DNA from: Eledone cirrhosa
Taxonomy: Eukaryota
Assembly (NCBI GenBank): GCA_964016885.1
Contig: OZ024742.1
Span: 89,032,001-89,096,000 of the forward strand
Direction: 5' to 3'
DNA: 64,000 bases
Within the stretch, counting starts at the first letter, position 1, and the number at the start of each line of letters is the position of its first letter. The translations under genes and the position numbers were made by a program. Of this stretch, positions 41,225 to 41,408 are shown in pieces. The notes under the pieces were generated by a model. That model had not been told where the DNA came from, made no database searches, and saw only the letters and a list, made by a program, of their open reading frames with translations.

Positions 41225-41408
41225 AGTTTTAATATATATGAGATTCTACAGGACTAGAACTGTTTCATTCTTTAGAAATCATCATGATTTCTAAATAATG
41301 AAACAGTTCTAGTCCTGTAGAATTTCATCTATATTAAAACTTGTATACTCTGCAATCTATTGAGTACCTTACTTACTGTGGTTACCTCCGATTCAACCCG
41401 AAATAACG
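41225..41408 (+). mobile_element. minimal palindromic member of the 31370-35812 family
   Basis: 41225-41284 inverted to 41285-41341, plus tail 41342-41408; inside (TA)n. Confidence 0.88.

Follow-up and report, generated by a model that had tools for sequence, protein, structure and literature searches.

A head-to-head Penelope-like element stub in a TA repeat, with two family-wide ends and a hairpin motif that may mark them

Insertions of Penelope-like elements (PLEs) typically consist of an inverted, 5'-truncated copy with a 30–40-bp tail at one end (PMC8557442, PMC3846280). The formation of tandem and inverted structures and the bias towards microsatellites are named as open in PMC8557442, and central palindromes are explained by self-priming in PMC3846280. 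For Poseidon_Ac, two internal reverse transcription (RT) starts were found in vitro; the interval between them equals the tail, and both strands of the target are cut and extended (PMC11167929). According to the same work, uncleaved hammerhead RNA serves as template and a dimer is predicted. It detects neither a difference between strands in the use of starts nor homology of primer and template in the Poseidon element, leaves the cis signal undefined and in its main text gives no model for inverted insertions. PLE hammerheads are covered in PMC4209133. The Hydra clade is described in section 11 of PMC8557442 by a CxCX5C linker, CxxC and CxH motifs, insertion into (TA)n and a hammerhead; that section is silent on the length of the tail, on start sites and on a motif in the leader.

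The locus studied here lies in a 64-kb stretch of DNA, which was analyzed as a whole and is called the window. Positions 41225–41282 pair with 41284–41341, and the arm alignment with only 3 mismatches in 58 positions identifies a real palindrome. Its inverted-repeat score was 96 compared to a maximum of 22 in 1000 shuffles, and none of 200 shuffles was as stable as the DNA fold of −51.3 kcal/mol (z −15.5). Arms, score and fold confirm the sequence-only reading, which had described a palindrome folded inside the hammerhead core, and the junction is the one written there. In total, the 184 nt are made up of two 58-nt arms and a one-sided extension of 67 nt, set inside (TA)n. With regard to a target-site duplication, both flanks of 41225–41408 are pure (TA)n. 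Aligned to the family reference at 31370, the short arm can be followed to the equivalent of 31496 and the long arm to that of 31494, with A41284 as the single common base; the untailed (short) arm extends 2 nt beyond the tailed arm. The short arm retains UGAUGA. Neither arm carries C3 or the 5' strand of stem I, so the 184-bp copy has no complete CUGANGA core with stem I. Because the inversion within the core removes C3 from both hammerhead copies, neither of them is a complete ribozyme. No ORF is left in the stub. The coordinates of all features are collected in the table.

Coordinates of the stub, its flanks and the related elements in the window
Feature	Position	Strand	Remark
Separate Hydra-type family, same anatomy	11661..13281	+	85-nt tail; motif variant 11699-11743 (-), model E 1.1
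Long family member	31370..35812	+	tailed inverted arm 31370 to ~32833 and body ending at short start; motif 31411-31431 (-)
C-terminal GIY-YIG endonuclease fragment, Hydra PLE type	32840..33298	+	in body of 31370 member
Diverged one-armed copy, degenerate hammerhead	41025..41094	+	ends at same TA array as 41225
TA-rich left flank, insertion target	41095..41224	.	pure (TA)45 at 41135-41224
Short arm, element sense on minus	41225..41284	-	starts at short RT start; 5'-truncated in hammerhead core
Head-to-head junction	41282..41285	.	3-nt loop, one shared base (A41284)
Paired part of long arm	41284..41341	+	incomplete hammerhead remnant from A6 on
GAAA box in long arm	41300-41303	+	cleavage-site equivalent after 41319
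67-nt one-sided tail	41342..41408	+	spans short to long RT start; PLE tail as in PMC11167929, PMC8557442
UA-rich stretch directly 3' of short start	41342..41347	+	by inspection; putative priming role
Conserved hairpin motif, copy 1	41347..41367	+	5 nt 3' of short start; model E 0.14
Right flank (TA)22	41409..41452	.	pure (TA)n
Diverged subfamily member	61379..61882	.	~82% alike; 96-nt tail; motif 61445-61465 (-)

The relatives in the window share this anatomy to different degrees. Both ends of 41225–41408 begin with the same templated bases as those of the 4.4-kb member at 31370–35812, so that the equality of endpoints claimed earlier stands, with the TA phase at the short end off by one base. 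The likeness to 61379–61882, also noted earlier, is only rough, since its short end lies about 5 nt earlier and its tail differs in length. The stub had further been called the smallest member of the family. This is correct for two-armed members in the window; smaller pieces are the one-armed copy at 41025–41094 and a fragment of about 20 nt at about 61972–61993, which begins where the 61379 subfamily has its short end and stands alone in a TA array. To the right of the TA array of 41225, the sequence from 41453 resembles by eye the tailed end of the element at 51174. One microsatellite thus holds three insertions, namely the diverged hammerhead end at 41025–41094, the stub and the sequence from 41453.

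A type I hammerhead pattern of our own, including stems I and III, is found at 31497 (−), 35752 (+) and 61530 (−). The first two lie in the long family member, where they look intact, and a compensatory change in hammerhead stem I separates the subfamilies. In Rfam searches of the window, neither a hammerhead nor any other family of relevance came up. The open frame at 32840–33298 gave matches to 5374 representative proteins (E up to 0.001) and aligns with the C-terminus of RT-EN proteins of 696–759 amino acids at 37–42%. It carries a CxCX5C linker and CxxC and CxH around conserved E and N residues, without CCHH. Five of the longest homologs (696–759 amino acids) carry YRDD, DKT, and RW[KR] or RWQ; YRDD and G[SA]xD[GS] were seen in the homologs by eye, and an RT domain for the 31370/41225 family is absent from the window. 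Across 30 related loci R37, W38, D114 and K115 are invariant. In Pfam searches, the fragment was not recognized as GIY-YIG and the homologs were not recognized as RT. The family resembles the Hydra clade of PMC8557442, section 11, in CxCX5C, CxxC and CxH around E and N, a (TA)n target, found in the window and in public runs, and a hammerhead; DKT and RWK are seen in the homologs. Judged from these features of sequence, 41225–41408 represents a Hydra-clade PLE that was inserted head to head, is truncated on the 5' side of both arms and is inactive. The clade placement is made on motifs and not on an RT tree with reference clades. The stub itself is ordinary PLE debris.

Three other identities were ruled out. 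MITEs and fold-back DNA transposons have symmetric terminal inverted repeats at both ends; here the two ends lie 67 nt out of register, and both arms consist of retroelement 3' sequence. During L1 twin priming, two primers from opposite strands act on one RNA and give rise to an inverted 5' part. The inverted segments of such insertions do not overlap and the first primer uses the poly(A) end, whereas both starts of the stub are internal and fixed, its arms overlap fully and no poly(A) is present; joints without overlap were seen in other copies only. Non-LTR retrozymes (bioRxiv 10.64898/2026.07.22.740005) are similar in being short, non-coding and PLE-derived with a type I hammerhead. However, they are defined by at least two head-to-tail units with complete hammerheads, while the arms of the stub are head-to-head and no hammerhead is complete.

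Compared with insertions of endonuclease-bearing PLEs (figure 2 legend of PMC8557442; PMC3846280), the stub has the same head-to-head, 5'-truncated arms, a tail at one end, a pLTR hammerhead and a microsatellite target. Unlike these published insertions, its tail has 67 nt instead of 30–40 (85 and 96 in the neighbors), its two arms break off within the hammerhead core and there is no ORF. Two internal starts bounding the tail are also found in Poseidon_Ac (PMC11167929), there in vitro and here read from sequence. The Poseidon_Ac starts are located inside the ORF, with one AC-rich stem-loop lacking homology to the target, whereas the Hydra-type starts are located in the 5' leader, where a UA-rich run and a separate copy of another hairpin adjoin each of them. 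Published PLE anatomy therefore already includes inverted copies, one-sided tails and two RT starts. New are the covarying hairpin in the tail, the tandem pairs in relatives and the element ends beside motif copies.

The hairpin was analyzed in related loci of a metagenome set (the best 80 of 308 confirmed), which have the hammerhead 144–246 nt before the ORF start in the six loci with enough flank. A motif RCUC-(stem-loop)-UY-GAGY-AC was seen in the leaders and also in the stub tail at 41347–41367; as the seed pattern was chosen after the stub tail had been seen, the ranking in the window is not fully blind. In 226,157 nt the pattern matched 55 times on the plus strand and 3 times on the minus strand. 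It was present in 22 of 31 leaders compared to 0.03 in shuffles, and its only three matches in the 64-kb window are the tails of the 31370/41225/61379 family. The closing pair, which the pattern leaves free, was C-G in 24, U-A in 19 and unpaired in 1 of 44 metagenome instances, a result reached by none of 500 shuffles. The remaining four of the five pairs are invariant, so that the structural support rests on one pair. From these 44 instances, without window sequences and leaving out an in-ORF match in locus L042, a covariance model was built. Among 7 matches in the window it ranked the three family tails first (E 0.01–0.14), followed by the tail of 11661–13281 (E 1.1); taken singly, the window matches are weak. 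Over the 80 loci, the model gave 89 matches in 46 loci and 27 tandem pairs. The copies of a pair are 54–82 nt apart with a median of 66, close to the 67 nt of the stub tail; two copies were found in 18 and one copy in 8 of the 31 leaders.

In full-length relatives both sites sit inside the 5' leader, upstream of the ATG and beside the repeated hairpin. The two starts are therefore probably internal and do not correspond to RNA 3' ends. Full-length copies are firmly predicted to carry a second motif just past the equivalent of 41408, the tandem pairs known here being those of relatives. A TA[CT]A or TGTA word lies at most 12 nt 5' of 29 of 45 motifs, compared to 10/44 and 8/44 in two neighboring, less AT-rich windows. 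By inspection, the six bases 41342–41347 pair 6/6 with a (TA)3 primer end, including one T·G wobble. The tail did not fold better than shuffles (z −1.41, 0.47 and 0.21), and a hairpin closing at the long end was dropped for this reason. In the 11 of the 80 loci searched, Rfam identified neither the start motif nor a hammerhead or another family of relevance. A tandem start motif was likewise not found in the literature covered, which leaves out most subscription papers and the Repbase entries; figures S1 and S2 of PMC11167929, on start sites and RNA fold, may bear on this. Exact-pattern scans for the 41225 family in metagenome, viral and genome contigs gave 0 matches. As a separate observation, second Hydra-type leaders with two motifs each before the ATG lie beside the matched elements at L036:1500–1850 (−) and L059:5000–5300 (−), the former also with a hammerhead core.

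Element ends were defined independently of the motif by BLAST of post-ORF sequence against leaders. Out of 24 ends, 6 with less than 20 nt beyond the end were dropped (L003, L008, L029, L031, L060 and L074, two of which fit and four do not), and the repeats of L035 and L055, being junctions within the ORF, do not enter the count. Eleven of the 18 kept ends lie 0–4 nt 5' of motif 1 or motif 2. After merging L014, L020 and L036, which represent one insertion, this applies to 9 of 16 (with a null of 12/250, p is 1e-8; with one of 0.15, 1.6e-4). The seven ends outside this range are L024 (no match), L027 (62), L038 (83), L051 (12), L054 (16), L058 (−32) and L004, which lies at 24 against the leader of another locus and about 2–8 against its own. 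The end of L012 comes about 14 nt and that of 61882 about 10 nt early. In the L014 insertion, the inverted arm stops 5 nt short of motif 1 and the body 4 nt short of motif 2; with both ends visible, it is a direct analogue of the 41225 stub. Short ends in the window precede motif 1 by 5 nt (41225 and 31370), 2 nt (11661, motif variant) and about 10 nt (61379). The last 4–7 bases at the end are UA-rich in all 10 leaders printed, and in L005, L006, L024 and L047 the genomic copy turns toward the TA repeat inside this UA-rich run.

Seven of eight resolved head-to-head elements in the window have a tail on one side only (p 0.035), a count that leaves out five further inverted pairs (1–3324, 16276–17707, 25246–25603, 27724–28559 and 28362–29172). 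Head-to-head elements in (TA)n also lie at 42532–42934, 43166–43979 and 51174–51529, with one-sided tails of 92, 57 and 40 nt and, in the first two, paired hammerhead cores (42627−/42746+ and 43336−/43726+). The covariance model found no motif match in these three tailed elements, and they may therefore use other start signals.

Ends and joints were also followed in public sequencing runs. Four of 24 listed runs were placed on the monomer 31358–31945, while 16 of the 20 runs that carry the sequence, having small word shares, were not used; organism A of these runs may not be the species of the window. No RNA run was among those listed, which is no measure of expression. Among the ends listed (403 further rows exist), loose ends into (TA)n were found at 31372 in 460 of 9383 X22 reads, 81 of 12453 X1 contigs and 2 of 26 in X6, and at 31437 in 418 of 9383 X22 reads and 1 of 39 in X4. 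In X22, long-end and short-end reads are thus near 1:1. Two weak consensuses of loose ends in X6 (31385 and 31392; 2 contigs each, agreement 0.62–0.63) were not accepted as motif 2. Among the 15 joints listed (16 further exist), nine connect opposite strands, and 8 of these 9 have one side at 31482–31501. The overlapping ones all lie in the hammerhead (31479/31489, 31481/31482 and 31500/31500), five link 31423–31436 to 31482–31501 and one further joint is 31377/31459. Side lengths of 27–28 from 31482 and of 45 from 31500 converge near 31455, the point at which reference and main subfamily begin to differ. From this convergence, the orientation of the non-overlapping joints is deduced to be head-to-head, with the tailed arm stopping at the short start. 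Each of them rests on 2–3 read starts or 1–2 contigs, and some may be one locus. Of two fixed ends and a variable center, as proposed before, the ends are recovered at 31372 and 31437, while the visible centers cluster in the hammerhead, so that the center is variable only in part. This clustering may be inflated by subfamily divergence beyond 31500 or by ascertainment bias. Depth in X1 over 31378–31497 is about 8-fold that over 31518–31617, and part of this drop may reflect subfamily divergence. Taken together, depth drop and clustered joints suggest that stubs of the size of 41225 form a common class. Six listed direct joints step back 73–78 nt (31506–31517 to 31434–31441). They describe head-to-tail units of about 77 nt with a whole hammerhead, restarting at the short end, i.e. 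a retrozyme-like array of the 31370/41225 family elsewhere in organism A.

Given the family identity, both fixed ends, the motif with its spacing in the tandem pairs of relatives, and element ends that coincide with motif copies, we consider it likely, with a probability of roughly 0.6 for the whole explanation, that the stub was inserted by two reverse transcriptases priming opposite strands of a cut (TA)n and starting just 5' of two hairpin copies. A protein dimer would bind motifs 1 and 2 within the 5' leader of a single RNA, and each subunit would nick one strand of the self-complementary TA repeat. The nicked 3' ends would then align on the UA-rich stretch beside their motif, and both cDNAs would run toward the RNA 5' end, often halting in or just past the hammerhead. 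If the reverse transcriptase from the long start displaced the short cDNA, a palindrome as in 41225 would result; if it stopped at the short cDNA, the inversion would be non-overlapping. Finally, the two cDNA 3' ends would be joined with little or no microhomology. With two motifs on one RNA and reverse transcription on opposite strands, tail length would equal motif spacing, and motif 2 would never be copied. The use of one RNA is favored by the predominance of one-sided tails in the window and by the non-overlapping joints. Two target-primed reverse transcription events joined head to head had already been proposed by the sequence-only reading; two starts and extension of both strands are published for another PLE (PMC11167929), and the head-to-head joining is still our interpretation. 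A homodimer prediction for the first 260 residues of the L023 protein, run with the alignment not used, scored 0.01 and was counted neither way.

The same starts and dual priming could also operate on two separate RNAs, with the hairpin serving protein loading, translation or a promoter and lying near the starts by inheritance only. Overlapping arms are simplest to obtain from two templates, start use showed no strand bias in PMC11167929, and seven of the 16 ends miss the motif rule. Nevertheless, we regard two RNAs as rather unlikely. Ends track either motif copy at 0–4 nt although the spacing varies between 54 and 82 nt, tails are one-sided in nearly all resolved window elements, both ends are read about equally often in X22, and the non-overlapping joints halt at the short start, if their deduced orientation is right. 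We think it even less probable that one cDNA or antisense template folded at its 3' end and copied itself, with the tail arising at resolution. This is the published model for palindromes at inverted PLE junctions (PMC3846280), it agrees with the near-perfect center and its 3-nt loop and with both arms always being of the same subfamily, and it fits 61379 and L014. A self-copying cDNA, however, needs its tail on the arm reaching furthest 5'. The 31370 and 11661 elements, which have no central palindrome, carry their tail on the inverted arm, by far the shorter one, and in 41225 it is the arm without a tail that extends further, by 2 nt.

Long inverted repeats are prone to deletion. The stub might consequently be the remainder of a longer head-to-head element that lost its middle later, in which case the ends are original and the center is not. 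A 4.4-kb member with the same ends exists and the stub is a single copy; the X1 depth and the joints clustered at 31479–31501, among those listed, argue instead for a common class of this size, which makes later deletion a distinctly improbable origin. Palindromes in AT-rich repeats are also known artefacts of library preparation or assembly, and the joint of 41225 is missing among the 15 joints listed. Such a fold-back artefact is very improbable for this locus, as 3 of 58 sites distinguish the two arms, its ends match those found family-wide in other runs, and the same anatomy recurs in six more window elements.

Returning to dual priming on one RNA, we see about even odds that in Hydra-clade PLEs a tandem hairpin pair with UA-rich alignment stretches positions the dimer subunits on one RNA and primes both (TA)n strands at once. 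If true, the PLE tail, long without an explanation, and head-to-head inversions would follow directly, and a telomerase-like template signal would be used twice. A 20–30-nt motif would then predict both starts, and starts and tail should follow its position and spacing. Such a motif would make the boundaries of Hydra elements simple to mark, and it would provide a defined cis signal for insertions that are templated by RNA and directed to TA repeats.

Some further observations concern neighboring sequences. A 52-nt hairpin in (TA)n without a tail (11580–11631) adjoins the 11661 element on its left. Within 1–3324, a near-full RT and GIY-YIG element of another PLE type was found at 308–2161 (Pfam GIY-YIG E 8e-6), with three frames and with inverted and tandem ends, and a further Hydra-type endonuclease fragment lies at 19744–20142 (−). 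Both subfamilies carry CAG where hammerhead stem I has its 5' edge (31503–31520 (−) and 61536–61545 (−)). This is a possible splice acceptor, preceded in 31370 by a U-rich run; an intron end at helix I is described for D. virilis Penelope in PMC4209133. In the 31370 element, mixed TA/CA microsatellite makes up about 1.8 kb of the 3' UTR (31940–32840 and 33470–35310). This microsatellite is mirrored in the inverted arm and was thus apparently copied along with the element.
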